From an uncultured Eubacteriales bacterium (GTDB lineage: Bacteria > Bacillota > Clostridia > Christensenellales > UBA1242): a DNA stretch of 32,744 bases. The translations under genes and the position numbers were made by a program. The stretch spans positions 8,321-41,064 of the forward strand of contig CARFEX010000001.1 in NCBI GenBank assembly GCA_948971535.1, read 5' to 3'. Positions within the stretch are counted from its first letter, which is position 1. Every line of letters begins with the position of its first letter. The notes beneath the pieces were generated by a model. The model was not told the DNA's origin and ran no database searches. It saw only the letters and a list, made by a program, of their open reading frames with translations. This document shows, in pieces, positions 7,019 to 32,744 of this stretch.

Positions 7019-7117
7019 GCGACAAGCTATTGAAAAACAATTTTTTCAATAACCGCTTCCTTGCTTCGCCAAGCAAGCGGTTGACTGCTGTTTTAACAAC
7101 AACAGTCAGCTTGTCGC
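7019..7117. other. GC-rich 99-nt element folding as a perfect four-way junction (closing helix plus three hairpins); unclassified ncRNA or DNA element
   Basis: P1 is GCGACAAGCT (7019-7028) paired with AGCTTGTCGC (7108-7117). Hairpin 1 (7029-7050) has a 9-bp stem and CAAT loop. Hairpin 2 (7051-7082) pairs AACCG/CGGTT and CTTGCTT/AAGCAAG with a CGCC loop and a 4-nt bulge. Hairpin 3 (7083-7107) has a 10-bp stem with one C.A mismatch. There are no unpaired junction nucleotides. Confidence 0.45.
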
Positions 7118-7205
7118 CCCCTCGCACTGTACCTCTATCTTTATTAAATGACAATTAACATAATCATTTTTTATACACACCACATAAATATAAAAAGGAG
7201 GAAAA

Positions 7206-7496: not shown

Positions 7497-7522
7497 GCAT
7501 ATCAGTGGATATGCTTTTTTAT
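7485..7522. terminator. Bidirectional rho-independent terminator between the ferritin-like gene and cwlD
   Basis: AAGCATATC (7495-7503) pairs with GATATGCTT (7508-7516) around an AGTG loop. An A-run lies upstream and a T-run downstream. Confidence 0.8.
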
Positions 7523-7523
7523 A

Positions 7524-8225: not shown

Positions 8226-8362
8226 AGTATTGTATTAAAACAATTTTAAATAAATGCAAAAAGTTGGCACACTTTCTTGTAATCACAGATTTTCCATGAT
8301 AAATTATCAACAGAGATAAAAAATCTTTAAAAAAATAAAAGAATATATGTTATACTAAAATT

Positions 8363-9361: not shown

Positions 9362-9373
9362 ATGAATAAAAAA

Positions 9374-9396
9374 CATATCAAACTGATATGCTTTTT
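9374..9396 (+). terminator. Rho-independent terminator
   Basis: CATATCA (9374-9380) pairs with TGATATG (9384-9390), followed by CTTTTTG. Confidence 0.6.
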
Positions 9397-9398
9397 GT

Positions 9399-13297: not shown

Positions 13298-13375
13298 ACT
13301 ATGATTATTAACTTTATAAATTGGTTTTAATCGTTTAGTTAAAGTAAAGTTTGTTTTTATTTTATTAGTTTTGAT

Positions 13376-13399
13376 AAAAAAGAACGCATTAAGCGTTCT
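13376..13399 (-). terminator. Rho-independent terminator of the giant gene
   Basis: AGAACGC (13381-13387) pairs with GCGTTCT (13393-13399), with extendable A/T flanks. On the minus strand a T-run follows (plus-strand A-run 13376-13380). It lies 8 nt past the TAA at 13407-13409. Confidence 0.8.
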
Positions 13400-13406
13400 T
13401 TTTTTA

Positions 13407-16400
13407 TTAGCTATTTGCAAGCTCTTCCAGTTTCTTTCTTCTCTTTCTTCTTGTAAGAATAATTATAACTACAATTAAGATAATCAATACAATTATTCCG
13501 CAAGCAACAGATATTCCGATTATAAGAGCATTATTTGTTGGTAGAACTTGAGCATGTTCGGTTATATGATGGAACAAACCATTATGAGATGTTATTGGTT
13601 TTTCATATGTTTTATATAACTCGATATTTTCTATGCTATTTGTTCCTAGGTCAAGAACACCATCGAATGGATTTTGTTCTATTCCTATTGGCTCCCAGAA
13701 CCTACCTGCTAAGTTAAGGCTTCTTGTAAGCTTGTAATAAGCTTGTGCATAAGCAAGATTTTCTTCGGTATTTATCATATAAGCTACATACGCAAGGTCT
13801 GCTTCGCTAGAAATGATGAATGGTTTATTTGCAGAGCCTTTACCTTCAAGTCTATCAGAACGAACTTCAGTCCAAATATTTCTAGCAAAATTGATTTCGA
13901 TAGAAATTGGTTTTGTAAGGTCTGGTTTATAGTTTGAAAGTGCAGGAGTGTAAATTTCTATACGTTTAGAAATTGAATTGTAACCAATATAATCTTTGTT
14001 AAAGTCTAGAATATATCTGCTTCCATTTGCTAAAAGCGCTACTGTTTCTACCCTGTAGTTAGCTCTTAGAGCTACATCCAAATAAAGTGTATTTCCAAAT
14101 GGGACTTTGTCAGTTTCTGAATCAGTGACAATAGTCATAGTTCCACCATTTGGTTTTCTATAAATAATTGTACCTGCAACTTCTACGTTGATATTGCCGT
14201 CTTTGAGATTTACGTTGAATTTAAAGCTAATTTGCTTGTTAGTTGCGACAGGAGCTAATACAATCATATTTTCATGAATGCTACCTGTAATACCAACAAT
14301 GTCGTCAGCAATAATCTCATAAATGTAAGCATCTTCATCTAGCACATATTGAGGTAGACTATATTTTTCATTCCATGCAACACTGTATCCATAATCAGCG
14401 GAAAGCTTAATCTTAACTATGTCCCCAACTTTGGCTTCATATTCTCTTAATATTTCACTTCCATCTGTATATACAATGCCATTGATTTCTAAATAAGTTA
14501 TCTTTCCATGTTCAGCAAATGCAGAATCGATTATTCTAACACCAACTACGTCACCTTCAAATACAGCAACAAGATTTAGAGGTTCAACTCTTCCAGCAGG
14601 AACTTTATAGCGCCAAATAGCAGTATAATATTTGCCTTCTGGAGTATTGTGTTCAATAGTTTCTCCTTCGCCTTTTTCACCAAATGGTTGTCCGTCCAAA
14701 GTTTCCCATCCAACAAACTTGTATCCTCTATGCTCTTCGGCAACTAGAGTAAACTCTTTTGTTGAATCAAATGAACCTTCGCTTGTAGCAGACTTTCCTT
14801 CTTGCACAAGGCTAGCTTTACCACCTTTATTGTTGACAGTAAGACTAAATTCAACTTCATAAACAGCTGTTATAGTTACCTCACCAAGTCCAGCAATATA
14901 AGTGTAATTTTTGTCAGTATGAGGTAATCCATCTTCTACACCATCACGTGCTACAACCCATTTAATGAACTTGTAGCCTTCAAATGGATAAGCTTGAAGA
15001 GTCATTTCAGTTCCAACAAGAACTTCAGCATAGAATTTCTTATCAATATCTGTCCATGAAGTATCTTTATTAAGGTTTGTAACAATATCCCTAACATTGA
15101 TATCCGTCTTATCTTTGAGTTCTGGTGGAATGAAATCTATAGTAAGTCTTTCTTTTTCAAATGACCAAGAAGCATAAATTGAATAAGTGTTGGTATTTTT
15201 ATCATAGTTTTCAACCTGTTTGTAACTACCGCTTACCCATTCATAAACATTTTCAAACCAAGCTGATATAGCATTTCCTTTTGCATCGATGTATTGATTG
15301 CCCATACCAAGAACTTTTGTGAAATATCCTTCAAAAGTAAACCCTGGTTTTGAAGCAACAATCTTTTCACGTATTTCATCAGTTATAACAAGATTTGAAC
15401 CATATCTGATATTTTCAAATACATATAGTGTTTCAGTTTCATTTACAAGAGCAACATTATATGTTTTTGGTTCAACATAGATTATAATTTCGCCACCTCT
15501 ATCTATTCCGCTTATCAAGAGGTTTGCCTTTTGAATAAATCCGTCTTGTTGCCATTTTGAACTACCGTCTTCATCGATATTGGTAGTAATAAGCGATTTA
15601 AGATTTTCATCATTAACATAGTATTTAATATTTCCACTATTATCCAAAACAAGTTGGTAGTTGAAACCAATATTAATTCCAATATTAACGTTTGCTGTTG
15701 TAACAGCATTGATGATAGCATTTGAAGTACCAGTTGTCGCACTAACAAGAGGGCTTGTGGTGTCTACTACAAACTTACCTGCAGCGATATCGACATTGCC
15801 ACCTTCGGTTCTAAATCTTATGTTAACTTGATTGTACTCTGCAATAAAGTTACCATTGATTTTAGCATTATCTTTAATCTTTGACACTTCAAAGTGAACT
15901 TTTTCTAGTTCCTTACCATTTTCAGTAATCTTATTTCTAGAAATTTCTCTTATTTCAAGTTGACTATCTCCATCGACATAGAATTTGTAACCTTTGTTAA
16001 CCTTTGCAATAAAGTAAAGTGTTGCATCAGTTTCAGAAAGCAATCTATAATGAGCTCCGTCAACCTTGAAACCTTCACCTGGGTATGGGTCAAGATAACT
16101 TGCGTTATTGTCTAGATTACCCTCCTTATCAGCAAGGTAAATCTTTCCACCGTCATCTACTCCATAAGTTCTTGAAAGAGCAACTTCCAATATTCCACGA
16201 ACGGTAATATAGGCTTCTCTTGCTTCATAAGAGATATTGATTGTGTCAGGTGTTGAAGTTGAAACAGGAAGAGTAATAACATTTGTTTGAGCATCATACC
16301 ATTCACTTCCGTCAACAATAGCACCAGCTAAAGTAAATTCTACTATTGTTTCATAACCCTCATAAGCACTTATAGTAACCACAAGGTCATTTCCAAAACT

Positions 16401-19400
16401 TACATTTCCAGTAGCTTTTGAGTTTTCGCTAAGAGTAAACTCTTCACCATTACCAAAGTTGTAAACAAGTGTTCCTTTGCTTCCATTGACAATAGTAACA
16501 GGTCTTTCAGCAACTCCAAAACGAGCAACAAGTTCAAGCACGCCATCTTCATTTAGATTATTTTCAAAGTAATCTTTCATAGTTTCATTGGCTTCAAAGT
16601 TATAATTTTCATCAGCTGAAAGTGAAATTTCTCCAACGAACCAACCATAGAATACATAACCATCTGTAGCTTTTGCGCTAACTGTTGTAGATGAGCCATA
16701 CATCATAGTAATAACATTTGTATCTGATGTAACAGTACCCATACTTTCATCACCGCTAACCGCTTGAACTTTATATTCACGTTCTGTAGCAGAAAGTGTT
16801 ATGTTTGTTCCAGCTTTAATTCCAGTGAGAGAATATTCTCTATAGAAAATCTTTGTATCATTATCAAATACATCTTGTTCTGTCATAGGTGTAACAATAA
16901 TATCCGCATTAGATGAACTGAAACCGATATCTTTATAGCCATACTTGAGAACAACTTTTATAGTAAGGTCCTTATCAGTTTCAATAGCAAAAGTTGCACT
17001 TGCATCTTTAATTTCTATTCTCTGACCATTTGCATAGATTGCATCAACTGACGCAGGAATATTATTAAAGTTAATTTTGTTTTTAATAGCACTTGCACTT
17101 GCCTCAACTGAAGCTCCGCCACGGAAGTCAGACCAAGTGATAACAAGTTTACCATTTGTAACGATTTCTGCAAATTTACCATTACCGCTAGTTGATAAAT
17201 AAGTTTTACCGCTTTCAAATTCATAACCTGCATCAGGAGCAATAGTAACTATAACTGTTGCACCAGTTTTAGATTGAATAATGCCATTAGTTTCTGTTCC
17301 GCCTGTAACGCTCTCAATTTCAGCATTGTGAAGAGTAACAGTAAGTTCATTATCTTGAGCAACAGCATTGATAGTAAGAACTCTATCTGCTGGCATATTT
17401 GAAATAGTTAAAATGTTTCCATTTTGAGCAAGTTCTATGCTGTCACCACTATAGTTGTAAGAAAGTTTATAACCGCTTTCTGGTGTAATAGAAATTTCCA
17501 AACTATTTCCATAAACAAGGTTGAACGCATCTCCACTTGTAACGTTGACTGTTCCAACTCTAACTACATCAATGTGGTCACCAATATTAATAGTGAGAGA
17601 GTAAGTTCCGTCAAACCAATTTGTGTAAAGGTCAAGTGTCCAAACTCCATTCTTTTCCTCTCCGATTACATCGAGGATAGAACCTTGTTCAAAAGTTTTT
17701 CCTTCGCTAGTCTTCCAGTTAAAATCTTTTCCTGTAAGAGTAGCTGTTGGGAATACACTTTCAATCTCATCACCAAACTTAATATTTGTGATTTTGTTTT
17801 CACCAACAAGAGTTCCGCCATCTGTAACATTGAATACGATTTCATATTCCTCGCCAGTCCAAACAGCTGAGAATATAATTTCAAAATTCTCAACAATGTC
17901 AGAATTATAACGGTCAAGAATCTCTTTCAAAGTTTGAGCCTCAGTGATGTCACCATTAGTATAAGAGTATCCTGTATGAGTATAGGTACCCGCTTGTGAT
18001 GCACTGAATTTTGCAAGCCAAGACCAAGCATTGATTTCAGCTGTGTCTACATAAGCAATCTCTTTTTCTAGCAAGTTCCAATCGTTTCCGCTTACGATTA
18101 TATCTTCTACTAGTTCAGGTTTATTGCCATCGAGCTTTATTGTAACTTTGATTGTATCCATGTTTACAACGAGACTAACATCGCTCTTAATTTGGTTAAG
18201 AGATATTTGTCCGTCTTTCTTTGTATTTTCACCTTGAGAGCTTGTTCCGCCTTTGATTTCTCCAGCAGTTACCTCAAAACTATCAAATACATATCCGTCT
18301 TTTCCTGTGATGCTAACCTTTACATCTGAGAAGTAGTCAAATTTAAATTTACCATTCTCTTCTTTCACTGTATCGCCGCTTGCTGCAATTGTAGCTTTAG
18401 CATTGTTGTAAGTGATATCAAGAGAATATCTTTCAATTTCCCAAACTGGGTAAATTGTAATTGTGTGATTTGTGTTGTCATAAGCTTGGTCAAGAAGAGC
18501 AAGGATATTTTCCTTTGTAATTTCTTGATAACTTACTTCACCGCTTTCACTTAATACTTGATTTTTCCAACCAATAACTTTGAACCCTTTTCTAGAAGGT
18601 GCACGAAGGTTAGCAAGCACTTCGCTGGCAACATTATTATCTTTATATTCAATAGCAAATTGTCTATAATAAATATTAATTTTTTCTTCGTCATTATTCA
18701 CGATATTGTCGTGTCCAAGAAGAGCAGTTTCATCTACAACAAGTGTAACTGTGCTAGCAGTAATAATTCCTGTTGGGTAACCTTCGTCACCAATAACATA
18801 GTTTGCACCATCACTGTTTAAATCAAGGACTACATTAACTTTATGAGTTCCAACATTTGCACTTTCAAACTTGGTTGCATCTTTATCTACAAGAATAACA
18901 TCACCAGCTAAAGCACCGTCAATTATCCATCTGTCAAAGTCAGTAGGAATTGCATCAGTTCTATCATAAGTTTTTGTTATACCTTGAGTTCCAGCAAAGC
19001 TAATTTCAACTTTACCAAGTTTAAGGTTTACTACAAATGTTTTTCCGTCAATTAACTCTTGATAGTTATTAGAGTTAATAGTAACTTTCAATGTGTGTTC
19101 TCCAGAAGCTAAATATTTGCCTGTAGAGAACTTCGCACTATCCTCAAATTCATATCCGCCAAGATTTACAAATCCGTCTGCAATAGCAGTTGTATAATTT
19201 CCACCGATTGTTAATGAATATTCGATAAGTGCGAGTATTTCACTTATACTCATTCCTTGCTTGATTTGTCCGTAAACAAGGTCAAGTTTTTCAGTTGGAG
19301 CAAAGCTAATATTTGTTTCCTTTGAAGGAGTGATATTTCCCTTTCCAACACTTGCAATGTTGTAGTTGTTGATATTGTCAGTCTCTTCCGCTGAGATAGC

Positions 19401-22400
19401 AATATCAAGAAGATTTCTTTCTCCAGCAAATGCACTATCGAACTTACCAATGATTGTAATTGTATCATCACCTTGAAGCCCGCTAACTACAATATCAGTA
19501 TCTTCAGTGAAATCACTAGTTGCGTCAAACTCTTTGCTTGCACTAACAGTTAAGTCAGCTTGTGTAATAACAAAGTTTGTTGCATTTGTAATTGTTGAAT
19601 TTGGATAATATGCGTTGTTAATATCAAGTGAAATTGTATAACTACCAGCATTAACAACATTTCCTATTGTGAAGGTAATACCAGTAAATACATTTTTGAG
19701 TTTATCTCCACTTAACACTTCAACTTTTCCACCAACTCTAAGAGTAAGGTCAAGTTTTGATGTTGCAATTACAACATCACTACCATTGTTATAAGCATTG
19801 AGTGACCAAGTATTTTCAGTTTCATCAAATACAAGTCCAAATTTAGTTTCTTGTTTGTTGTAAGATTTTGTGAATGCATTTGGTGAAAGTATATTAATTT
19901 CCAAACGTCCTTCTGAACGTTTAATCTCAAAGAAGGTGTTTCCTTCAGCTATTGAGATTGCGTAGTTATCATTATCAGCGCTAACGAATTCAACTTCATA
20001 AAAACCTATTTCGTTGACAGAAGTATCTTTTCTTCTAACTGTTATAACAACACTTTCTGTATTGCCGTCACCAAAGTCAAATACTTTAGTAATTGTCATT
20101 GGGTCTGGGTCTTCTTCGCCAACAAATTTATATAGATTGTTCACAAGTCCTTCTATTGAAGAAATTGTTTCAACCTTTTTGCTAACAACGAAGCTAGTTG
20201 TGTACTCACTGTCTATTTCATAAACTGTGGTATCAAAATTAAATGCGATTGTATAAATACCAGCATTAATAATTTCATTTACTTCTTGGCTAGTTGCTTC
20301 AGCATTTTTCTTATATGAAATTTCAAACCAGAAGTTTTCTTTTTTAAGAAGTTCTGCAAGAGTATACGTTTGTGTGCTTGTTCCTATAGTGATATCAAAG
20401 TTAATATCTCCTACAAAGTTTGCATGTTTATATTCACCGCTATTAGCACTTGTGCTAACAGAGATTTTTTGTTTTGCAACTTCTACATCAAATTCTACCT
20501 CAGTTGTTTTTGATGTAAAGCCTTCTTTTGAAGCAGTGATGACAACTTTGTATTTGCCATGTGCAGTAAAGTCTTTAACGATTTCAACAGATTGTCCTGC
20601 ATCAGTTGATGCCATAACATTTCCATTGTTGTCATACCATGTATAGCTATAATTTAAATCACCTTCGTTTGCTTTGTTAGTGATATTGCCTATAGCTTCT
20701 GCGAGGGTTATTGTTTGCTTTTTGCCAAACTCTGCAACAACATTTATAGTTTTGTTTCCGTCTGCAACTGGCAAAGCTATTTCCCAATTCGCAGTAATTG
20801 TAGCAGGTAAAATATTAGTGCCAGCTTCAGCAGAAAGCCTGTCGCCTTCAATTTCCAAACCTTGACTATTAGTAGTCCATTTTGCAAATTCAAAACCTTT
20901 CCAGTAACCAGGAACTTTATCATTGTCAGGTCTTGCAATGGTTTGAGCTGTTCCGCCAACCTCAACATAATAATCTGCAATCAAACTATCATGAGCAAAA
21001 TCCGCTTTAACATATTTAACATTTGTGTAAACTACAGTAAGTTTACCGTTAGCTGATACAGTTATGTTGTCTTTATAATTTGCCTCAACACCTTCAATAG
21101 TCTTGAGTTTTTCAAACATATTTTCAGCTAAAGTAGCTTCAGCTTCTTCGTTAGACCAAGCAACTAACTTAAGTCCAGTAACACCTGAAACTGTAACATT
21201 GAAAGTTACAGTAACACCTTCTTTCATAGCAACAACAATCTCATCAGTACCATTTCCGCTAATAGTAAAGAGTGTGTTGTTTTCTTCTATATAGTTAAAG
21301 AAGTTTTTATTTCCTATATTTATTTCTTTATCGCCATAACGAAGATTTGAAATAGTAAATCTGCCGTCAACCTTTGCAAAAGTTTTGTCTATTGTAAGCT
21401 TTTTAGCAGATAAATTATAAGTTGTCGCAGGCGTTTCTATAGTATAAGTTCCGCTAGCAGTCCAAACAAAGTTTTCTACATCAACACTGATTCCACTCAA
21501 AGTTGCAATTCTTGTATTATCTAGAATTGTAAACTGTGTTTGAACACCAGTATTTCCAGTAGTTTGAGCAGTTACACTAAATGCAAATTCTGATAGGTCA
21601 ACTCCGCTATTTGTTTTAGCTTGAGAGAGTGAAACTTGATGAGTTTTTCCTGTTTCAAGTCCAGCTCCAGTAACTTCAAACTCAATAGGTGTTTTTGTAA
21701 TAGTAACACTTCCCTCTAAAAGAATGAAATATCCATAAGTATCTTTTCCAATGCAATCGTCAGTAAAGTTCTTTCTAGCTTCATCAGTGAGATTTAAATA
21801 AACTTTTGCACTTCTGTCATTTCCTACATTGTAGTTGCCAGTAAGTTCAACTCTATTGAAAGTAGCATCAGAAATTTCCTTTCCGTCAATTAGTGCATGA
21901 CCTTTGTCTTCACTAGCATCAACAGCTACATAGGCTTTTGTGCCTGTGTAGTAACCATTAAAGTTTTGTTGTGACCAAGTCATAACAGCTTTAACTATAG
22001 TGATTAAATTTGTGTCTTTGCGGAGAATATAATCTTCTCCAGTAATAGCATCACGAACGATGATTACAAAAGCATAAGTTCCGCTGTCTTTAACATCCTT
22101 TAGTGAAAGTGTTAAAGTTTTGTCAGCAGTAAATTGAGTGAGTGTGTCATCTTCTTCAACTCGTGCGTAGTAATAATTTTCGATACTATCACCATTAGCA
22201 AAAGTTGTGTTAGAAGTAAGGTCAAACTCTGCATCATCAACTTCTACATTGCCTGTTGCAACAATGCGAGCTTCGCTATTATAAACAAGTTCGTTAACTT
22301 CGTCCTTGTTTGTTATAGTTAAGTAGTTTTGATAATCTTCTGCCCAAACAACTTCAATTATGCTATCTGCAGTAAGAGTATAAGGGTTTCCAATAACGTT

Positions 22401-25400: not shown

Positions 25401-28400
25401 TCCAACATTAACTTGTGAAAGAGTACCTGAAATTACAACCTCTTCACCATCTACAATTCCGCTAACATTGACAGTTATATTTGCATCAGCTTTTTGACTG
25501 TTCCAAGAGAATGTATTTTTTTCATCAAACACTTTTTCAATATCACTAACAGTAATAACAGCTTGGTTAACTTTGATTGCTTTGTCATTTGCAATATTTC
25601 CGCCAAAATCCGCACCATTTGGGAAGGTTGCATTTTCTACTCCAAGACTTACTGCTATTCCGTACTCTCCAACATTTTTACTTGCACCAACAACGTTGAA
25701 ATTAAACTCATTGAGGATAGTTTCTATATTGGTTTCAAGTTCATTTAAGTTTTCACCTATCATGTGGAAGAGTGAAACTCTAGTAGTTGCCAGAATATTT
25801 CCGTCAACATCTTTTGCTTGTAAGTACCAGCCAGCAGTTGTAAACCATGCCTCTGTACTTGAATTAAAGTATACCTTGTCAATGCTTGCAACCGCTTTGC
25901 CATTATAAGAATATTCAAGACGTTTATCAAGATTGATTTGTAGTTTTGAAGTTGGAGCAGTGATAACAAAGAATAATCCTTCGCCGTCCTTTGCTACCGC
26001 TTTATAATTGGTATTTTCTGGGTCAAGCACTGTTAAAACTTTGTTACCAACACTTTCTCCAGCCTCTCTATTAAACTTGATTTTAACACTTTCGCCATTA
26101 ATAGGGTAATTAATTTCAAGAGCAGGGTCTCTATACCCAAACACTTTTGTCAATGACTTAACGTCATCAGCAGTAAGAATGATAGTATAAGGTGCAACTA
26201 CAACATTTTCAGCAGTAACATTTCCGCTATATACTGTTGGATCAATGTTGAGTGTTAAAGTATAAGTTCCAGCATTCTTGATTTCATTGCCAGCGCCACC
26301 AATAGTAAACCAAATGTCACTATTTTCAACAAGATTGTTAGCAAGAATAAAATCTTTGCCAGCGCCATCAACTGTAAGTTTGATTATTACATTTCCCTCT
26401 TGTCTTGCATTATTATACACAAGTCCGTCAGTAGGGTTTGTTTCAACAACCATCGTTCCGCTTATAACTCTAGTTTGTATAGCGATTTCAAAAGTAAAGT
26501 CTTCACTATTTGTAGTTTGTTTATTTCCGCTAGCACCATTGACATCTGTATAACTTGCTGTAACCTTAACAGTAAAGTTACCATTTATAGCAGTTGTTTT
26601 TCTACCAAAATCATAGCTTTCAGCTGTGCTAAATTCATTGCCTTCACTATCCACCCAAGAATAAGTGTATTTGATAAGATTGTTGTTATTGTTTTTGTTT
26701 GTAAATGTAAACAAGTCATTTAGGTTTATTACAAGGTTTGCATTGGCATCCCCGATTAATGAAGCTTTGTCATTAAACAAGTTCTTTTTACTTGTATACT
26801 CTGGATTTAAAAGAGTCCATCTTCCGATAGCTTCAACAGGAGTTGACCCACCAGTAGAATTAAAGTTGAACTTTCCTCCATTAACTTTGCTTGCAGTAAG
26901 CCCATTGCTTGTAGCCCATTTGTCAAAAGCAAAACCTTCCATATTAGCTAAATCAGGGTCAACAATGTCTATTCCCGCATCATCTCCTGATGAAAGATAG
27001 AAAGTTTTAGGAGTAAGGTTAATTATATGTTCATTTGTTTTGTTTTCATAAAGCTTAACCTGTCTTACATCAGTAAGAACTGCTAAGAAAGATTGGTCAA
27101 CTTCTGAACCTTGAAGATTAAGGTTGATTTCTCTTCCAGCACTAGCAACAAAGTTGTCTATATACGAGCAACTATCTTCCTGCCAAGAAGCAACTATATC
27201 TCTATCAAGGAACCCTAAGAAACTAAGTCTTGAATCAGCTATTTTTTCGCTAAGAGTGATAGTAAAGCTTATTCCAGCATTTTTTCTTACAGCAATAGCA
27301 AGTCGGTCAGTTCCATTTCCGATGATAGTAAATAAAGTTCCACCATTCTCATCAAACTCAGAATATTGTTCATCAGTTATTAAATTGCCTTGGGCATCTT
27401 TAACAGAAAGCATGTATTGAGCATTACCATAACTATCAATGAGCGAACCACCTTGGAGGTCAAGATTACCATTTCTAGCAACGAGATAACGTACGTCATA
27501 GGTGAAAGTATTTGCAACAATAGAACTGTCAACTATTTCATAAGTACCAACAACTTCAAATGTATAGTTATCGCTTGAAACTACATTTCCGTTTTTAGTA
27601 ACTTGGAAGTTTCTAACAGTAAATGTTTTTCCTTCATCTTGTCCATATACACCAATCAAAGAACTACTTGTTAAAACGCTGTCAAATTGAACTGAGAAAT
27701 CAAAGTCTTTAATTACGTCACCTTTGTCACCATAAGTAGCAGTGGTGCTACCTATAACAACCTTGTGTAGTAAATCTTGAAGATAAAAGCCTTGTTGAGC
27801 CCCATTTTTAACATTTAATTTAATAGGTAATTTAACTATGTAAATTCCACCATTTGAATCTGCATCAGAAGTAGCAATAGTATATTCACTTGTAGTATTT
27901 TCAGAGCTAGGCATTTGTTCAGTTAAACCATAGTTGTAAGCTTGTTGTTCTGTGAGTCTGAATGTGAATTTTGCAGGATAACTTATTCCGTTATCAACCT
28001 TGCTTCCTTTCACGTCAAATTTTCCACTAGCATCTACAACTGTTACTCTTGTGTTTGCTATTGATAATAAAGGAGCATCGCTCTCACTTGTCATGTGAGT
28101 AAATTTTATATTTCCTCTATTTGAATTTTCAGTTTCAGCAACACTTTCACTTCCAGTATAATATGTTTCCATATCTACACTGTCAAGATAAATTTTATTG
28201 GCATTTATAGTAGCGCTTATTGGAGCAGAAGTTATAGAATATCTTTCCACCTCAAATCCACGTCCAGCTGACAAACTATCAGAAATTGTGATTTTAAGTT
28301 TATAAGGTCCATAATTTCCAGCATTTAAACGATTTAAACTGAGTCCACTTGTTATAACTTGTGTTTCGTCTTCATTTACTATGGAAATTTCAGAAATATT

Positions 28401-31400
28401 TTCACCATTAGCAACCAAGCCAGCACCAGTGTAAACAACCTTTTCGCCCGCAACAGTTGCACTAATTTCACCAGCTAAAATTTCCTGTTCTCTTTCTATA
28501 TAATATAGCCCGCTGTTGGCTTTCAAACTTGCAGTTAAGAAACTGTTATCTAAGTCTCTCTCCCAAACAGGATATACATTGATATTTCCAACATAATTGT
28601 AAATAGTTTCACTATCAATAATAGTTTTTGTTTCAGTTTCAGCAAAACCAACTAATTTGTAACCATCTCTTGTTACATTAAAAGGTATAGTTCCAATAGC
28701 TTTATCAAAGATAACTTCAAAACTGCTTTCTCCCTCAACTTGTTCGTATTTGCTGTCAGTTAAAAGTGTGATTGTGTAAGGATTGGCCTCGTCAAGAATT
28801 TGAACATTGAATATCTGTCCTGAGGTTAAATAATCGGCATTTGCAACCAATGTAGCAAACATTGAATTGTCTAAAGTAAATGCATATTTACCTTGGTCAT
28901 CCTTAGTAATTACGGCATGCTTAGCGCCCTCTTTGCTACCTAAAATTTCAAAACCAGAAATTGTGTATCCAGCTCTACCTAAATATTGCACAGAGTCATT
29001 AAATATACCGCTGAAATCATTTTCATTTACAACAAAATTTAATAATGCGTCAATGCTTAAATTAATACTTCCGTCAATAGCATCTCCGTTAGGAGCTTTA
29101 AAGCTAATCTGATAAGAAAGTTTGTCTGTAAATTCTGGTTGCATTATTATGCTGACCGAGTATCCATTTTCTTCTATTAAGTTTTCAGACCAAACTCTTG
29201 CATCTATAGTAATTAATCCATTTGAATAACTTAAATTCTGATTATTTAATATATCAAAGTTTTCGTTCAAAATTGTCCAGTTGCTTGCTTCAGCATATCC
29301 TGCACGGCGAATGTTTTTTATAAAATCAGACAAGTTAGCAGTATTATCTTCATGATTATAATAATATACTAATTGGTTTGTTAAATCACTATTTTCAACA
29401 CCCCAGTTTACACCACCATCAACGGTTAGTAACCCTTTTTGATTGTCTGAAATATTGTTTCCATGAGAACCATATATTTTAACAGTTTTTTGTCTGATTA
29501 TAGGAGTTATTTGCAATAGAATTTCATCTGTAGTTTTAGCTATTTCACCTATTTCATCCAAAAATTCTTTGCTATTAAACAATTTCCATGAATACACTGA
29601 ATTTTCAGCGAAGTACATATCTTGTGTTTCATTTTTATTTATTTGTGTTGTAAAAGTATGTGTTCCGTAAGTATATCTCCAGCCTGCAATATAATAACCT
29701 TTATCGATTACATTTGGAGAAAAATAACTAGTTTTAATATCAAAGACAAATTGATTTTCTTCAAGTCCCATGAAATCTAAAAAGTTCTGTGGCACATCAT
29801 TTAAACAACTAAAATTGTTATAACGGAAATCATTTTCAGGATAATTCCCAGTATATGAATTTAATTTCCACTTTATATTATCTTTTAAGATTAATGAGTC
29901 ATTTCCAGCCCCATTCCAATTGTTCACTAAGACATTTGTTTTGATATCGTTATTATGAGGAAAATCATAACCAAGCCTCATTGTTTTTAAATCAATAGGC
30001 ATTATAACATCTTGTGTTAAATCCAATGAAAACTCATCACTAACAAAAGTGCAAGTTTCTGGGTCCCTAGTTAAAGGTATATCAAACATTGCCTCATTAA
30101 TTCTCATTATCTTAGCAAATTTTGCAAGATAAGATTTTTCAGGGTCAGTTTGAAATTTTAATTCAAATTTCAATGGTTGTCCAGGCAAGAATTCTGTAAT
30201 AGGTGCTTTTGTAGTATCACTTGCAACATAAACTATTGCATAATCTATAAATTCATCTACAGGGTAAGCTATTCCTTCATAAGTTTGCTCTTCTCCATAA
30301 AGAGTACGTTTTTGTGTAAGACTATACTTAATGGCCTGCATTTTGAAATCGATAAAATAATTATCTCCAGGAGTAAGGTTAGCAAATTTATATACGCGAT
30401 ATTCATATCCTTCACTACTTGGTTTTAAAACTTCTTCTGTATGAGGTATTACTTCTCCACTAATACTATTACCTTTATGCAAAATCAAGCTACCAGAAAC
30501 AGTCTTGTAGTATTTGTTATGTTTAATATAGAAAGATATTGAGTTGTCGGCATTTGGTTCAATATGCCAATCTTGAAAGCTTCCAGATTGAATAAAGTCA
30601 AAATTTTCAGTGCTACTTATACCTAATGTTTGACCTTCTATAAAATCATTTTTTAGCCCATCAACAAAACCAAATTCTCCGCTACTAAATATCATAGCTT
30701 TAGTTTTAGTTTGTATTGATATATTTATTTCATCTTCATTTGATGCAATATATTCACTACCTTGTGACCTACTAAATGTTTGATTAATGTATTTTCCGTC
30801 AGAACCTTCATAGGTGATTTCAAATTTATTTTCACCATTAGAAGAAATAATTGGAGTTAATATAAAGTATCTGGCATTAGGAATAATTTTGAGAATAAAA
30901 TGGTCGCCTGTGTTTAATGAAAAATTTAAAACATTGTTAAGTTCTGTTAAACTATTTCCAACAAAAGTTTGTGTAGCACCACTATTAATAGATAACTCTA
31001 TTTTTTCTACCTTATCGCCTTCAAAGTTTACTTTTATATCATCTCTTTTTTGTTCAACGATAAATATAATTTCTCCAGTTGCAACTATGTTTTCAAAAGT
31101 AACTGTATAACTATTATTTTCACCAATCTCAACTTTGTATTTTACAGGTGTAGCTGAATCTATATTGCTATCAGCAAACATACCGAAAATGCCATTTTGA
31201 CTAAAATTATATTCATTTAAAATAGTAGCATTTTCAAAGTTTGTCCCTGTTGTTGCCCCAGCGAGAGTATATCCGTCTTTGAGAGTAAAGTTAAAAACTA
31301 ATTGGTCTTCTACTTTATAATCATTCAAATTTATACTATTGAAAATATTATTTACAGTTGACTCGTCTTTTCCAGCAACATTAACATTCTTCTCTCCAGC

Positions 31401-32744
31401 AGTTATTGTAAAATCTGACATAGGGAATATATTATTTGTATAACCATTTTTCCAAGCCAAACTGAAATTTAAACCAATAGCTTCTTCATTTGCAATCCAA
31501 TCCAAATAGATATTGTTTACTGTATCATTGATTGTATCATTATCTAAATCAAAACTAAAGGCTTCTGTTCTATCTGCACTAGTATATGCTTTATTCAATT
31601 GATATCCAAGACGTGTTAAACTTGTTCTCTCTATTTTACTATCATAAGCAACTGTTAAATTTACAACTTTTTCACTTGGCTCACCATAACCATAATAGAT
31701 TTTTAAGTCAACATTCTTTTCTTCCCAATTAACAGTATAGTTTAAGCTTTCTGAAGATAAAGTTCCTTTAAAACCTTCTCTTATGAAATACACGTCATTA
31801 TTTTCCGCAAATCTATATTCTGTTGGAATACTAGTTCCATAAAGCGGATTTTGTACACTTAAAGAAGTTAATGTATCAACTTCTCCACCAAAAGTTGTCA
31901 GAGCAATTTTGATATTTTCATTTGCAAATGTAGCATCACCTTTCTTTTTAAAATTTCCTCCATTTGCATTAAACATTCCGATATAGCCAGGTGTATAAGA
32001 AGTAGAGTTGACTGTTATAGTATTGTCAACTTCCTCTTTAGTTGTATAATCAATATCAGTTCCATTTCTAGAAGAACCTCTAATTATCTTTGTAGAACTT
32101 TCAGTTGAACCGATAGTTTTGATATAATCGTCATTAGTAATATCAAAACAGTTCACAACTTCTGCGTTTGCACTCATTTGTCCTACAAGTTTACCAATTT
32201 TATTTGAGTCTGTGTTATGTATATCATATCGTCCACTTAAAACAATGTCGTTAATAGAACCTGTAACATTACCAAACAATCCTGAACCACTATTCGAAAC
32301 TGAAGAGGCTCTTGTTACAGTAACACCAGTTACAATTGCACCGTTACCATAAAAAATACCAGAATAAGGGAGAGATGCTGTACCAATAGGAGTCCAAAGC
32401 TTTGCAGAAAGGTCATAAGTTTCTCCAGCTTTCAAACTATAATTTGCTGATGCGAAGCTTGAGTCACCCATAACAATTTTATAAGCAACATAGGCAAGGT
32501 CGTCAGCAGTAGCTATTTCATTTATAGCCCCAGCGGAAGTATCCAATGTTATACTATAATCCAAAACCTCATTACCCCAAGAGTTTACTGGAGGATTATA
32601 TGGGTCAAAAAAACCGTCACTACTATAAGTATTTACATTGTCTTCAGAAGCAAAAACATCTTCTTCAAAATTTAAAGAAGTATTTTTGTTATTTATTCCA
32701 CCAGCAAAAGATGGAATTAATAGAAGACCTCCTCCCATAAAGAG
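13407..32744 (-). CDS. Giant surface protein (at least 6,443 aa; 5' end off-window) with C-terminal TM anchor; InlB-B-repeat(Flg_new)-like, MBG/YDG-like and GLUG-type modules
   Basis: A single open frame runs from the window edge to TAA at 13407. The first visible residues, ..LFMGGGLLLIPSFAGG, look like the end of a signal peptide. Repeated motifs of the form GY.F.GW...W occur (for example GFAFDKWATSNG..IGRW, RKGFKVIGWKNQ..IYPVWE, TITFDLNGEG..LYAVWRD). MBG-like modules occur (for example ITKTYDRTDA...GANYVIG..GIITAS). Composition is rich in N/T/S/V/G/E with only a handful of Cys residues. The C-terminus is a 25-aa hydrophobic helix followed by RRKRRKK. Confidence 0.9.
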   Translation of the reverse strand, partial: LFMGGGLLLIPSFAGGINNKNTSLNFEEDVFASEDNVNTYSSDGFFDPYNPPVNSWGNEVLDYSITLDTSAGAINEIATADDLAYVAYKIVMGDSSFASANYSLKAGETYDLSAKLWTPIGTASLPYSGIFYGNGAIVTGVTVTRASSVSNSGSGLFGNVTGSINDIVLSGRYDIHNTDSNKIGKLVGQMSANAEVVNCFDITNDDYIKTIGSTESSTKIIRGSSRNGTDIDYTTKEEVDNTITVNSTSYTPGYIGMFNANGGNFKKKGDATFANENIKIALTTFGGEVDTLTSLSVQNPLYGTSIPTEYRFAENNDVYFIREGFKGTLSSESLNYTVNWEEKNVDLKIYYGYGEPSEKVVNLTVAYDSKIERTSLTRLGYQLNKAYTSADRTEAFSFDLDNDTINDTVNNIYLDWIANEEAIGLNFSLAWKNGYTNNIFPMSDFTITAGEKNVNVAGKDESTVNNIFNSINLNDYKVEDQLVFNFTLKDGYTLAGATTGTNFENATILNEYNFSQNGIFGMFADSNIDSATPVKYKVEIGENNSYTVTFENIVATGEIIFIVEQKRDDIKVNFEGDKVEKIELSINSGATQTFVGNSLTELNNVLNFSLNTGDHFILKIIPNARYFILTPIISSNGENKFEITYEGSDGKYINQTFSRSQGSEYIASNEDEINISIQTKTKAMIFSSGEFGFVDGLKNDFIEGQTLGISSTENFDFIQSGSFQDWHIEPNADNSISFYIKHNKYYKTVSGSLILHKGNSISGEVIPHTEEVLKPSSEGYEYRVYKFANLTPGDNYFIDFKMQAIKYSLTQKRTLYGEEQTYEGIAYPVDEFIDYAIVYVASDTTKAPITEFLPGQPLKFELKFQTDPEKSYLAKFAKIMRINEAMFDIPLTRDPETCTFVSDEFSLDLTQDVIMPIDLKTMRLGYDFPHNNDIKTNVLVNNWNGAGNDSLILKDNIKWKLNSYTGNYPENDFRYNNFSCLNDVPQNFLDFMGLEENQFVFDIKTSYFSPNVIDKGYYIAGWRYTYGTHTFTTQINKNETQDMYFAENSVYSWKLFNSKEFLDEIGEIAKTTDEILLQITPIIRQKTVKIYGSHGNNISDNQKGLLTVDGGVNWGVENSDLTNQLVYYYNHEDNTANLSDFIKNIRRAGYAEASNWTILNENFDILNNQNLSYSNGLITIDARVWSENLIEENGYSVSIIMQPEFTDKLSYQISFKAPNGDAIDGSINLSIDALLNFVVNENDFSGIFNDSVQYLGRAGYTISGFEILGSKEGAKHAVITKDDQGKYAFTLDNSMFATLVANADYLTSGQIFNVQILDEANPYTITLLTDSKYEQVEGESSFEVIFDKAIGTIPFNVTRDGYKLVGFAETETKTIIDSETIYNYVGNINVYPVWERDLDNSFLTASLKANSGLYYIEREQEILAGEISATVAGEKVVYTGAGLVANGENISEISIVNEDETQVITSGLSLNRLNAGNYGPYKLKITISDSLSAGRGFEVERYSITSAPISATINANKIYLDSVDMETYYTGSESVAETENSNRGNIKFTHMTSESDAPLLSIANTRVTVVDASGKFDVKGSKVDNGISYPAKFTFRLTEQQAYNYGLTEQMPSSENTTSEYTIATSDADSNGGIYIVKLPIKLNVKNGAQQGFYLQDLLHKVVIGSTTATYGDKGDVIKDFDFSVQFDSVLTSSSLIGVYGQDEGKTFTVRNFQVTKNGNVVSSDNYTFEVVGTYEIVDSSIVANTFTYDVRYLVARNGNLDLQGGSLIDSYGNAQYMLSVKDAQGNLITDEQYSEFDENGGTLFTIIGNGTDRLAIAVRKNAGISFTITLSEKIADSRLSFLGFLDRDIVASWQEDSCSYIDNFVASAGREINLNLQGSEVDQSFLAVLTDVRQVKLYENKTNEHIINLTPKTFYLSSGDDAGIDIVDPDLANMEGFAFDKWATSNGLTASKVNGGKFNFNSTGGSTPVEAIGRWTLLNPEYTSKKNLFNDKASLIGDANANLVINLNDLFTFTNKNNNNNLIKYTYSWVDSEGNEFSTAESYDFGRKTTAINGNFTVKVTASYTDVNGASGNKQTTNSEDFTFEIAIQTRVISGTMVVETNPTDGLVYNNARQEGNVIIKLTVDGAGKDFILANNLVENSDIWFTIGGAGNEIKNAGTYTLTLNIDPTVYSGNVTAENVVVAPYTIILTADDVKSLTKVFGYRDPALEINYPINGESVKIKFNREAGESVGNKVLTVLDPENTNYKAVAKDGEGLFFVITAPTSKLQINLDKRLEYSYNGKAVASIDKVYFNSSTEAWFTTAGWYLQAKDVDGNILATTRVSLFHMIGENLNELETNIETILNEFNFNVVGASKNVGEYGIAVSLGVENATFPNGADFGGNIANDKAIKVNQAVITVSDIEKVFDEKNTFSWNSQKADANITVNVSGIVDGEEVVISGTLSQVNVGNTTVATIALGSGEVENNYLLADNKAEIVAKIVPSKIEITLDGANLSQEYGKINTINYNVSSTMADFIGLTLKNGEDTLAKINDYVSVYAVTIDGATNADNSLSDIFATASSSLKASENKYVVRFTLSSQNYTFGAEINESGTYTKEYELKIEVTKKDLSLSQTATVTKAFDGNANLPATHDNMQIGSTQAFAWIGSGLVGVDNVTVTGSYDSEQIGDRTLNLTFGGDGANYNIIGIPAGRIENAIFDFTAKFDTITFVDGEQPFEGNNSFRITYTGNNEKLVSDINDVDNFATRVGGGYTQTGWNFKFANEEGTEETLEVSNENVTALLKQVLANNNTLELLAIWEQQDKVITVKFDSTRGQIKNGEIAGNTFTTKYYNGEINLDVLAENGYYFKDFSVDNTENAIITSSGTNTKNGSLEITGVKDDITITVSFDYIIITITANDGEHAGATIVSGAWDTASKDFNVNTAGVTAKALLPQYELEDNTYNLKGWKITYDGLENPIVIDNTDTRSIWEIVGGNSILTNSRNVTATAIWESAPISFNINHENADIVSVSVGGENVNGTNAGANLTTYGVHFGDNVVITFSGKTGYKYSGNEFSGVVDKIIDAEKGKRENRVITLSGLKQHSSTLTLNMESIVVTINANANKQPYSTIDGNENVEFKIKVAELASTDTIGEELAKFATTKAGTYNQTAWKYESNSVAFTDTILDFINSTYASEKAVDAPSELDADFTFTNTLNAEWTPVQYTITFDLNGEGSFVDGATTTLVVDYGEPITGMPEVTHTGGKVNIWSTTQNGLGGSSYAEGDKLSTPAEGINVGATEATLTLYAVWRDAPYDVTISYGDHITAVYRGQTQIVNGNSTSILSGTSVTLDITLEGGYVIDTATLDTVNGAFAENENVVVNGNQITLNNITKPRTLTITAKPATYKLNINLRGEFEKVTGAQSDSEGNYYIEVEFNEAYSATDLANLVFTRAGYKPVSIKNKANDTIIATYNDVDKNWNVIGNPYTLTADSIIEVVWAEDYQNYLTITNKDEVNELVYNSEARIVATGNVEVDDAEFDLTSNTTFANGDSIENYYYARVEEDDTLTQFTADKTLTLSLKDVKDSGTYAFVIIVRDAITGEDYILRKDTNLITIVKAVMTWSQQNFNGYYTGTKAYVAVDASEDKGHALIDGKEISDATFNRVELTGNYNVGNDRSAKVYLNLTDEARKNFTDDCIGKDTYGYFILLEGSVTITKTPIEFEVTGAGLETGKTHQVSLSQAKTNSGVDLSEFAFSVTAQTTGNTGVQTQFTILDNTRIATLSGISVDVENFVWTASGTYTIETPATTYNLSAKKLTIDKTFAKVDGRFTISNLRYGDKEINIGNKNFFNYIEENNTLFTISGNGTDEIVVAMKEGVTVTFNVTVSGVTGLKLVAWSNEEAEATLAENMFEKLKTIEGVEANYKDNITVSANGKLTVVYTNVKYVKADFAHDSLIADYYVEVGGTAQTIARPDNDKVPGYWKGFEFAKWTTNSQGLEIEGDRLSAEAGTNILPATITANWEIALPVADGNKTINVVAEFGKKQTITLAEAIGNITNKANEGDLNYSYTWYDNNGNVMASTDAGQSVEIVKDFTAHGKYKVVITASKEGFTSKTTEVEFDVEVAKQKISVSTSANSGEYKHANFVGDINFDITIGTSTQTYTLAELLKKENFWFEISYKKNAEATSQEVNEIINAGIYTIAFNFDTTVYEIDSEYTTSFVVSKKVETISSIEGLVNNLYKFVGEEDPDPMTITKVFDFGDGNTESVVITVRRKDTSVNEIGFYEVEFVSADNDNYAISIAEGNTFFEIKRSEGRLEINILSPNAFTKSYNKQETKFGLVFDETENTWSLNAYNNGSDVVIATSKLDLTLRVGGKVEVLSGDKLKNVFTGITFTIGNVVNAGSYTISLDINNAYYPNSTITNATNFVITQADLTVSASKEFDATSDFTEDTDIVVSGLQGDDTITIIGKFDSAFAGERNLLDIAISAEETDNINNYNIASVGKGNITPSKETNISFAPTEKLDLVYGQIKQGMSISEILALIEYSLTIGGNYTTAIADGFVNLGGYEFEDSAKFSTGKYLASGEHTLKVTINSNNYQELIDGKTFVVNLKLGKVEISFAGTQGITKTYDRTDAIPTDFDRWIIDGALAGDVILVDKDATKFESANVGTHKVNVVLDLNSDGANYVIGDEGYPTGIITASTVTLVVDETALLGHDNIVNNDEEKINIYYRQFAIEYKDNNVASEVLANLRAPSRKGFKVIGWKNQVLSESGEVSYQEITKENILALLDQAYDNTNHTITIYPVWEIERYSLDITYNNAKATIAASGDTVKEENGKFKFDYFSDVKVSITGKDGYVFDSFEVTAGEIKGGTSSQGENTKKDGQISLNQIKSDVSLVVNMDTIKVTIKLDGNKPELVEDIIVSGNDWNLLEKEIAYVDTAEINAWSWLAKFSASQAGTYTHTGYSYTNGDITEAQTLKEILDRYNSDIVENFEIIFSAVWTGEEYEIVFNVTDGGTLVGENKITNIKFGDEIESVFPTATLTGKDFNWKTSEGKTFEQGSILDVIGEEKNGVWTLDLYTNWFDGTYSLTINIGDHIDVVRVGTVNVTSGDAFNLVYGNSLEISITPESGYKLSYNYSGDSIELAQNGNILTISNMPADRVLTINAVAQDNELTVTLHNAEIESVTGGTETNGIIQSKTGATVIVTIAPDAGYEFESGKTYLSTSGNGKFAEIVTNGKLVITWSDFRGGASVEASASAIKNKINFNNIPASVDAIYANGQRIEIKDASATFAIETDKDLTIKVVLKYGYKDIGFSSSNADIIVTPMTEQDVFDNDTKIFYREYSLTGIKAGTNITLSATEREYKVQAVSGDESMGTVTSDTNVITMMYGSSTTVSAKATDGYVFYGWFVGEISLSADENYNFEANETMKDYFENNLNEDGVLELVARFGVAERPVTIVNGSKGTLVYNFGNGEEFTLSENSKATGNVSFGNDLVVTISAYEGYETIVEFTLAGAIVDGSEWYDAQTNVITLPVSTSTPDTINISYEAREAYITVRGILEVALSRTYGVDDGGKIYLADKEGNLDNNASYLDPYPGEGFKVDGAHYRLLSETDATLYFIAKVNKGYKFYVDGDSQLEIREISRNKITENGKELEKVHFEVSKIKDNAKINGNFIAEYNQVNIRFRTEGGNVDIAAGKFVVDTTSPLVSATTGTSNAIINAVTTANVNIGINIGFNYQLVLDNSGNIKYYVNDENLKSLITTNIDEDGSSKWQQDGFIQKANLLISGIDRGGEIIIYVEPKTYNVALVNETETLYVFENIRYGSNLVITDEIREKIVASKPGFTFEGYFTKVLGMGNQYIDAKGNAISAWFENVYEWVSGSYKQVENYDKNTNTYSIYASWSFEKERLTIDFIPPELKDKTDINVRDIVTNLNKDTSWTDIDKKFYAEVLVGTEMTLQAYPFEGYKFIKWVVARDGVEDGLPHTDKNYTYIAGLGEVTITAVYEVEFSLTVNNKGGKASLVQEGKSATSEGSFDSTKEFTLVAEEHRGYKFVGWETLDGQPFGEKGEGETIEHNTPEGKYYTAIWRYKVPAGRVEPLNLVAVFEGDVVGVRIIDSAFAEHGKITYLEINGIVYTDGSEILREYEAKVGDIVKIKLSADYGYSVAWNEKYSLPQYVLDEDAYIYEIIADDIVGITGSIHENMIVLAPVATNKQISFKFNVNLKDGNINVEVAGTIIYRKPNGGTMTIVTDSETDKVPFGNTLYLDVALRANYRVETVALLANGSRYILDFNKDYIGYNSISKRIEIYTPALSNYKPDLTKPISIEINFARNIWTEVRSDRLEGKGSANKPFIISSEADLAYVAYMINTEENLAYAQAYYKLTRSLNLAGRFWEPIGIEQNPFDGVLDLGTNSIENIELYKTYEKPITSHNGLFHHITEHAQVLPTNNALIIGISVACGIIVLIILIVVIIILTRRKRRKKLEELANS
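13410..13529 (-). other. C-terminal transmembrane anchor (13455-13529) plus polybasic cytoplasmic tail (13410-13454)
   Basis: ALIIGISVACGIIVLIILIVVIIIL followed by TRRKRRKKLEELANS-stop. Confidence 0.8.
13545..13840 (-). other. C-terminal, membrane-proximal GLUG-type half-module of the giant protein
   Basis: GSANKPFIISSEADLAYVAYMINTEENLAYAQAYYKLTRSLNLAGRFWEPIGIEQNPFDGVLDLGTNSIENIELYK...HNGLFHHI. It shares the string DLAYVAY with the N-terminal module. Confidence 0.55.
17250..22334 (-). repeat. Super-repeat unit 2 (~1,700 codons, diverged and shorter) within the giant ORF
   Basis: Begins at VWAED (22335-22349). Recognisable colinearity with unit 1 fades after ..NELTVTLHNAEIESVTGG (~17290-17340). 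Confidence 0.6.
19325..19560 (-). other. Example MBG/YDG-type module
   Basis: LTVSASKEFDATSDFTEDTDIVVSGLQGDDTITIIGKFDSAFAGERNLLDIAIS...NNYNIASVGKGNITP. This fits the pattern l.v...k.YDGt......v.Gl..gD.v.......G......l.G.d..NY.l......I.p. Confidence 0.55.
22335..28568 (-). repeat. Super-repeat unit 1 (~2,070 codons) within the giant ORF
   Basis: Begins at VWERD (28554-28568). It is colinear with unit 2 through at least six anchor motifs (see findings). Confidence 0.65.
22900..23170 (-). other. Example Flg_new (Listeria-Bacteroides / InlB B-repeat)-like module
   Basis: YTITFDLNGEGSFVDGATTTLVVDYGEPITGMPEVTHTGGKVNIWSTTQNGLGGSSYAEGDKLSTP...ATLTLYAVWRD. Confidence 0.65.
32139..32531 (-). other. 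N-terminal GLUG-type module of the giant protein
   Basis: Residues ~70-200 read AINEIATADDLAYVAYKIVMGD..YSLKAGETYDLSAKLWTPIGTASLPYSGIFYGNGAIVTGVTV...GSGLFGNVTGSINDIVLSG. This fits the pattern I.t.eeL..la...y.L..DidL...W.PIG...F.G.fdGnG..I.nl....GLFG. Confidence 0.6.

Follow-up and report, generated by a model that had tools for sequence, protein, structure and literature searches.

Known giant surface proteins

The staphylococcal matrix-binding proteins Ebh and Embp belong to the megadalton class, carry an N-terminal signal, consist of alpha-helical FIVAR/GA-type repeats, and end in a membrane-spanning segment with a charged tail instead of an LPXTG motif. The gene described here, a giant open reading frame (ORF), lies on the minus strand of a 32,744-nucleotide stretch of DNA from an uncultured Eubacteriales bacterium (GenBank assembly GCA_948971535.1, contig CARFEX010000001.1, positions 8,321 to 41,064), which is referred to in full as the window. 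Its product (~6,458 residues, ~700 kDa) is probably a type I membrane-anchored surface protein of an uncultured, low-GC, sporulating Firmicute, and the new and most interesting concrete result obtained with it is a burst of amino acid replacements between strain lineages. The anchoring of Ebh/Embp and of the giant protein appears to be alike; the giant protein, however, is beta-rich by composition and models, not helical. No FIVAR, GA, or DUF1542 family was matched in any Pfam tile of the giant protein, no sequence relationship was detected, and the proteins are not homologous.

The class of fibrillar adhesin-like proteins of Gram-positive bacteria was defined by Monzon et al. (PMC8286594), and transmembrane (TM) helices occur in ~20% of the adhesin-like proteins that have no known anchor (PMC8286594). 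With this class the giant protein has in common its great length, an N-terminal signal, a stalk of many small beta domains, a distal module, and a C-terminal anchor, and all three features by which the class is delimited (signal, long small-domain stalk, and cell anchor) were found in it. It differs in having no recognized adhesive domain, as no adhesive or ligand-binding Pfam domain was matched and the N-terminal module has no solved relative, and in having stalk domains so diverged that iterative profiles from single copies miss each other. The kind of protein is known, and on its sequence the giant protein is best placed among the giant fibrillar surface proteins, as a new and highly divergent member of that class.

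Giant1-5 of Apilactobacillus kunkeei are surface proteins of 3,000-8,000 amino acids (aa) with a Sec signal and a beta-solenoid-type module near the N-terminus, followed by a long, highly imperfect repeat array (PMC12863079). They are Asn-rich and diversified among strains, which has been attributed mostly to recombination (PMC12863079). The stalks of Giant1-3 are alpha-helical; C-terminal anchoring is by SH3b-like DUF5776 wall-binding domains (PMC12863079). Overall layout, Asn-rich composition, and strain diversification are alike in the window protein, which differs in its apparent TM anchor and its excess of point replacements and has no sequence homology to the A. kunkeei proteins.

The giant open reading frame

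Positions below are those of the window, and features lie on its minus strand unless stated otherwise. The frame at 13407-32744 holds 6,445 visible codons and a TAA stop, with no internal stop and no N in the translated reverse complement. At the window's GC content of 33%, a random frame stops every ~13 codons, and a frame of 6,445 codons would be open by chance with p ~1e-217; ORFs in the other frames within the gene are 158 aa at most. Exact look-up of the neighboring prfA and DUF1385-PrmC proteins recovered this locus on 23 contigs, which come from several ENA, Logan, and NCBI samples. The gene, 19.4 kb in size, is complete on two of these (6,458 aa on an 86.7-kb ENA scaffold, ERZ28569458 scaffold_517, and 6,461 aa on a Logan contig), and the rest break inside it. 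Because these public full-length calls are 6,458 and 6,461 aa, about 13 N-terminal residues should lie outside the window, and they resemble the beginning of a signal peptide.

The commonest residues are T, N, I, G, V, and S, and Cys occurs only six times. Acidic residues outnumber basic ones (D+E 873 vs. K+R 501), and this acidity is even along the chain (net charge −13 to −37 in each 500 aa). A preliminary description of this DNA had proposed a single giant minus-strand ORF running to the window edge, a start only tens of codons beyond it, and a nearly Cys-free product rich in N, T, S, V, and G, and each of these points agrees with the full-length calls, the independent public assemblies, and the residue counts.

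An assembly artifact or a decaying pseudogene could in principle account for so long a frame: metagenome-assembled genomes (MAGs) often fragment giant genes, and a related long contig (L007) has a copy with many frameshifts. Yet the gene was seen with identical structure in at least 12 independently assembled contigs from different samples, its frame is intact with a long-term ratio of nonsynonymous to synonymous substitution rates (dN/dS) of 0.2, and the chance probability of the open frame is vanishingly small. No direct DNA repeat longer than 53 nt was found inside the gene, so repeat-driven misassembly is unlikely. An artifact or pseudogene is thereby effectively refuted, and the gene is real and nearly complete.

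Signal sequence and membrane anchor

The first visible residues (LFMGGGLLLIPSFAGG, 32697-32744) align with the N-termini of five orthologues (P0001, P0004, P0005, P0007, and P0021), which begin with MKK, continue into a hydrophobic stretch, and end in Pro plus small residues. By this alignment the giant protein has an N-terminal signal sequence, the end of which is seen in the window as had been suspected, and which is presumably cleaved. Because the orthologues begin with a classical N-terminal signal sequence, the product would be a type I, C-terminally anchored secreted protein, and the label "tail-anchored" given to it earlier is wrong in the strict sense.

At the other end, a hydropathy scan found the sole strongly hydrophobic segment at aa 6400-6436 (19-residue window mean 3.58), within which a single TM helix was placed at aa 6406-6430 (ALIIGISVACGIIVLIILIVVIIIL, 13455-13529). 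The predicted cytoplasmic tail that follows (TRRKRRKKLEELANS, 13410-13454) consists of a basic cluster and the ending [LM]E[EQ]LANS-COOH. Helix, basic cluster, and extreme end are kept in three lineages, represented by the window, by P0003/L007/L008, and by P0105, whereas the extracellular juxtamembrane sequence is not conserved. Sites of the form [KR]n-[LM]E[EQ]LANS-COOH lie at 13410-13454 in the window, at ~13094 in L007, at ~12323 in L008, and at the C-terminus of P0105. By the positive-inside rule the basic cluster and the LEELANS end are predicted to be cytoplasmic, and the conserved end may be a partner-binding or sorting motif.

This C-terminus matched only generic single-pass TM and stop-transfer look-alikes in Pfam and NCBIfam. 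In scans of the giant protein with the same libraries, no SLH, LysM, choline-binding, or CTERM-sorting model reached threshold; the TIGR01167 LPXTG_anchor model scored 8.0 bits, under its cut-off of 15.9. Regular expressions for LPXT[GASN], NPXT[GN], [SP]PXTG, and LAXTG matched nowhere in the giant protein, and no sortase was seen in the ~33-kb window or in the 10-kb flanks of related contigs. Hydropathy and both libraries thus bear out the earlier proposal of a C-terminal TM helix plus a basic RRKRRKK tail in place of LPXTG, SLH, LysM, or choline-binding anchoring.

The string "LPTNN" just before the helix was considered as a variant sorting motif and rejected, as position 4 is not Thr. If it were one, the protein would be a sortase substrate in which motif, hydrophobic stretch, and basic tail form a variant cell wall sorting signal, and the C-terminus does have this tripartite look. 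Against such processing speak the missing Thr together with the absence of any LPXTG-like pattern elsewhere in the protein, and the TIGR01167 score. Pro6402 is moreover a derived S-to-P polymorphism of the window lineage: all other strains have LSTNN, the sister species has LITNN, and the third lineage, P0105, has nothing similar at this site. Conservation lies instead in the cytoplasmic end, which would be lost on cleavage by a sortase. A sortase substrate is accordingly very improbable.

Terminal modules

When aa 1-1200 were scanned with HMMER against 1.84 billion representative sequences, 328 matches were returned, nearly all of them only to aa ~55-260 and often several per protein; some of these relatives carry Pfam Glug (PF07581) or Peptidase_M26_N (PF05342). 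A custom profile hidden Markov model (HMM) built from 816 such modules matched the giant protein at two places only, in full at aa 61-269 (31938-32564; E = 6e-48) and as a half module at aa 6295-6395 (13560-13862), whose match extends over aa 6295-6419 and which abuts the membrane helix. Residues 77-161 and 6311-6395 are 31% identical, and the arrangement of half module followed by TM helix is conserved in P0003, L008, and P0105.

GLUG/M26_N-type modules have hundreds of homologues, in large surface and phage proteins, and share with the window protein the signature ...L..LA..VN.G...Y.L..DIDL.G..W.PIG....F.G.FDG.G..I.NL.....GLFG.... Unlike GLUG proteins, the window protein stays below the Pfam Glug model, with about one GLUG-like rung after the conserved start; unlike Peptidase_M26_N proteins, it has neither an M26 peptidase domain nor HExxH, and its C-terminal copy is only a half. 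The earlier suggestion of GLUG modules at both ends therefore stands in one respect, since a homologous module is present at both ends by the custom HMM, but Pfam Glug was never matched, even at E<=10, in either terminal ~200 aa. The assignment to GLUG would hold only by transitive homology.

In an AlphaFold 2 model of aa 55-340 (13-row alignment), aa ~65-215 reached a predicted local distance difference test (pLDDT) score of 80-90 and formed a helical hairpin followed by beta rungs. Foldseek against the PDB with this model gave nothing significant (best match a pectate lyase, E = 0.45; polygalacturonase beta-helices also at E >= 0.45), and a profile search of PDB sequences with the module found nothing. 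Against BFVD, Foldseek returned two unnamed phage proteins (E = 3e-4 and 3e-3) and then pectate-lyase and tailspike types. For the N-terminal module, a beta-helix-like fold is plausible from the model.

The placement of the only two module copies next to the two hydrophobic ends, conserved in relatives, could also mean that the protein is held at both ends by an uncleaved N-terminal anchor, or that its N- and C-terminal modules bind each other to give loops or head-to-tail polymers. The N-terminal hydrophobic stretch, however, is short and ends in Pro plus small residues like cleavable signals, and the same module occurs in many unrelated architectures; such a two-ended or self-associating protein is quite unlikely.

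Stalk domains and the orphan region

The stalk was searched with Pfam on 800-aa and 350-aa tiles of the giant protein under Pfam gathering cut-offs, and Pfam accounts for ~5% of its length. Three domains reached their cut-offs: YDG (PF18657) at aa 4580-4651 (18792-19007; 31.5 bits vs. 25), MBG_2 (PF18676) at aa 4201-4269 (19938-20144; 25.0 bits, exactly at the cut-off of 25), and Flg_new_2 (PF18998), a divergent InlB B-repeat, at aa 5910-5963 (14856-15017; 40.9-42.9 bits vs. 23.6), with a second Flg_new_2 stretch in the same tile. Below cut-off were MBG_2 at aa 2197-2254 (18.8 bits vs. 25), YDG at aa 2602-2681 (22.3 bits vs. 25), Flg_new (PF09479) at aa 3195-3245 (21-22 bits, best 21.6, vs. 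27), and Flg_new_2 at aa 5141-5178 (23.0 bits) and aa 5334-5383 (21.0 bits), both vs. 23.6. In all, three Flg_new_2 matches besides the one above cut-off scored 21-23.4 bits, just under 23.6. TIGR02543 scored 15.4 bits, below its cut-off of 20.95, and the NCBIfam scan added nothing to the Pfam domains. No enzymatic family and no HExxH, CxxC, or RGD motif was found in the giant protein by Pfam, NCBIfam, and motif scans, as expected from the preliminary description, which had seen no enzymatic motif.

The B-repeat signature G[YF]x[FLIV]x[GSKA][WFY] occurs 11 times, from aa 1016 to aa 6007, compared with 0.37 times in shuffled sequences. The giant protein is in this respect like the Listeria-Bacteroides/InlB B-repeat proteins, with an enriched GY.F.GW signature and one Flg_new_2 match above cut-off; it differs from them in that most of its copies fall under the family thresholds. 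The view that many segments match Flg_new, MBG, and YDG modules can thus be kept for YDG, MBG_2, and Flg_new_2 at cut-off once each, all other matches being sub-threshold, and the B-repeat resemblance can be kept for the signature, while Flg_new is below the Pfam cut-off throughout.

Self-BLAST aligned aa ~1789-3390 (copy A, 22575-27380) with aa ~3810-5148 (copy B, 17301-21317) at 25-36% identity, and copy A holds the sub-threshold MBG_2, YDG, and Flg_new matches. The two super-repeat copies are, as judged from this alignment, the product of an ancient internal duplication of ~1,500 aa. Iterative HMMs seeded on single copies of Flg_new_2, Flg_new, YDG, or MBG did not recruit the other internal domains; because single-domain profiles do not find the other copies, the internal "repeats" must be extremely diverged.

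Between the N-terminal module and the first of these domains lies an orphan region (aa 270-2190, 26175-31937) with no Pfam or NCBIfam match and only scattered B-repeat signatures. Pfam matched nothing in aa 1-2190 or in six N-terminal family members, and PDB sequence searches with the N-terminal region were empty. AlphaFold 2 on aa 1-1200 (14-row alignment; mean pLDDT 38.6) was confident only for the terminal module and a beta-sandwich at aa 732-801, and Foldseek on that model gave only generic Ig-like matches with E >= 0.03.

Excess of replacements between strains

Strains were compared over the last 10 kb of the giant gene and its downstream flank. One haplotype comprises the window, an NCBI MAG contig (L006/L026), and a Logan contig from ERR4184059 (L028), and a second haplotype comprises eight other contigs. 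The two are near-clonal, with 25 differing positions in the gene (13541-21142; gene nt 11603-19204, aa 3868-6402), 24 of them nonsynonymous and one synonymous (NG86 dN/dS 6.7). The flank of ~10-12 kb shows 0-1 differences in most assemblies. When polarized by a more distant strain (L005), 24 of the 25 changes are derived in the window lineage, which has fixed 23 amino acid replacements against one synonymous change.

Long-term evolution of the same sequence is different. Between the second haplotype and L005 there are 37 nonsynonymous and 50 synonymous differences, and because this corresponds to a dN/dS of 0.20, the gene appears to be under purifying selection over the long term. The nonsynonymous-to-synonymous count of the window lineage departs from this long-term proportion (Fisher p = 1e-6) and from strict neutrality (p 0.02), and the substitution rate of the gene departs from that of the flank (p = 7e-9).

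The changes cluster at aa 3868-3969, 4686-4855, 6189-6242, and 6381-6402. Nine of them fall in aa 4686-4855, across two adjacent B-repeat-type domains, and in the membrane-proximal half module the sequence TNPT, conserved even in the sister species, has become EKPI. Six replacements create Lys. A target of a diversity-generating retroelement was rejected, as the 25 sites are spread over 7.6 kb, all four bases are affected, and no matching repeat was found. Had a divergent allele been imported, synonymous changes would have come along with it. L028 was dismissed as a third haplotype, because all 19 of its differences fall in the terminal 24 nt of the contig. These counts are most simply read as positive selection on the ectodomain in one lineage.

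Relatives and distribution

Searches with aa 1-1900, aa 1-1200, and the last 800 residues never returned the giant protein itself, even though gene calls of 6,458 and 6,461 aa exist in the contig index, which suggests that the search libraries lack very long proteins; relatives appear as fragments and their counts are lower bounds. Collinear N-terminal relatives, at 24-37% identity, were only P0001, P0002, P0004, P0005, P0007, P0021, P0154, and P0155, and C-terminal relatives were only P0003 (45% identity) and, from the representative library, P0105. A well-annotated close full-length homologue, which would have removed the novelty initially proposed, was not found in the protein library searches. 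As far as these libraries reach, the family is rare, sparsely populated, new, and almost unannotated.

In a sister-species MAG ("uncultured Firmicutes bacterium") the orthologue is intact over at least 4,109 aa and collinear with aa 2256-6445 at 40.5% identity. The sister-lineage contig L007 (ENA ERZ21549435 s2311.ctg002614l, 1-10000) has a disrupted copy, with at least 13 frame switches in ~10 kb, while the C-terminal 1,037 aa and every downstream gene are intact. The gene is intact in L008, a short-read MAG contig ~95% identical to L007. The L007 copy is either a pseudogene or the result of consensus errors in a hypervariable gene.

Proposed architecture and role

In the arrangement proposed here, a Sec-type N-terminal signal sequence, recognized by homology and presumably cleaved, would export the chain until the single C-terminal helix stopped transfer, leaving the RRKRRKK cluster and LEELANS in the cytoplasm. 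The acidic, almost Cys-free ectodomain of ~6,390 residues would consist of small, highly diverged beta domains strung together, some of B-repeat/Flg_new_2, MBG, or YDG type and many unclassified, and would derive in part from the ~1,500-aa duplication. This string would form a fiber that crosses the wall and projects far beyond it, with an estimated length of 200-300 nm if about 70 domains of ~90 aa and 3-4 nm each are assumed. The distal N-terminal GLUG-type module, probably beta-helical, would be the candidate binding head, with the half copy located at the membrane. Architecture and selection signal together suggest an adhesin or contact role. The partner contacted would most likely be external and variable (for example host material, other cells, phage, or antibody), because one lineage shows 23 replacements to one synonymous change against a long-term dN/dS of 0.2.

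Several observations weigh against this picture of an anchored, fiber-forming surface protein. About 95% of the giant protein is without family assignment, the two AlphaFold 2 runs together give confident structure only for aa ~65-215 and 732-801, and the strain comparison covered the part of the gene given above. The frame switches in L007 also indicate that the protein may be dispensable in some strains.

With the same topology, the role might instead be that of a protective or spacing coat, acting as a brush of protein, as a barrier like an S-layer or capsule, or as a decoy for phage. The even acidity of the ectodomain would suit such a coat, no recognized adhesive tip domain was matched in the Pfam scans, and the replacements occur in several stalk domains and in the membrane-proximal module, not at the tip alone. 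On the other hand, a single-copy gene for 6,458 aa would be costly for a coat, S-layer or SLH features were not found, and the GLUG-type module conserved at the distal end is similar to heads or modules found in other surface and phage-tail proteins. A coat is possible on these grounds, though on the unlikely side, and an adhesive or contact fiber is preferred.

Terminator and gene neighborhood

Tandem TAA TAA stops close the giant ORF (13404-13409). Directly 3′ of the stops, folding identified an intrinsic terminator (13376-13405), GAACGC-UUAAU-GCGUUC followed by U6, with a hairpin energy of −20.8 kcal/mol (z = −4.3); a simple consensus terminator scan missed it. The giant gene accordingly has its own terminator, as first described.

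Downstream follow, in order, a DUF1385-PrmC fusion, prfA, a hypothetical membrane protein, a CwlD-like amidase, gmk, SpoIIE, and TilS, on the same strand as the giant gene save for one Cys-rich ORF and one small ORF. From these neighbors, the host is taken to be a sporulating Firmicute. GC skew on the plus strand is uniformly negative across the window, which places the giant gene and its downstream genes on the leading strand. Scans for tRNA genes and Rfam families found nothing in the window.

DUF1385 and PrmC form one fused ORF (11579-13420), and they are also fused in the sister species (570 aa). A public 613-aa call of this protein uses a TTG start upstream of the terminator and overlaps the stop of the giant gene; it is probably over-extended, and the ATG at 13297 is a likelier start. 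The hypothetical membrane protein (330 aa, 9399-10391) is a hot spot of strain divergence, with a synonymous divergence (dS) of 0.21 relative to L005, far above that of the adjacent prfA and PrmC (dS ~0.005 relative to L005), and it is 294 aa long in the NCBI MAG. The Cys-rich ORF (332 aa, 8363-9361, plus strand) is split in two in one strain (L002/L025).

Neighborhoods were also seen in relatives. The sister-species orthologue lies upstream of rpsF-ssb-rpsR-rpmE-DUF1385/PrmC-prfA, and rpsF-ssb-rpsR follow the giant gene in L007 and L008. In a 30%-identical relative (L009, 1-7901), the start of the giant gene is ~0.5 kb past trpS, at a distance of ~4.4 kb from the divergently oriented dnaA-dnaN and recF, by a likely replication origin.

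Significance

Contact between uncultured Firmicutes, from the gut or the environment, and their surroundings is governed by giant surface proteins, of which almost none outside pathogens have been characterized. Domain libraries miss ~95% of the present protein, and billions of sequences yielded only a handful of relatives, which makes it well suited to testing structure-based annotation. Experiments on the conserved cytoplasmic end and on the module at both termini would be inexpensive. In practice the best starting point is the 24:1 excess of replacements between near-identical strains, which names exact residues and points to current selection.

A more far-reaching reading takes these features jointly: a new envelope-spanning giant family confined to one uncultured sporulating Firmicute lineage, with ~2,000 N-terminal residues of undescribed folds, intense ongoing positive selection, and a dedicated C-terminal cassette, which may comprise the half GLUG-type module, TM helix, basic cluster, and LE[EQ]LANS end. 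The combination as a whole is improbable. If it were true, the cassette would couple the fiber to a cytoplasmic or membrane partner, and selection by phage or host immunity would make the giant protein their chief antigenic or receptor determinant in these bacteria.

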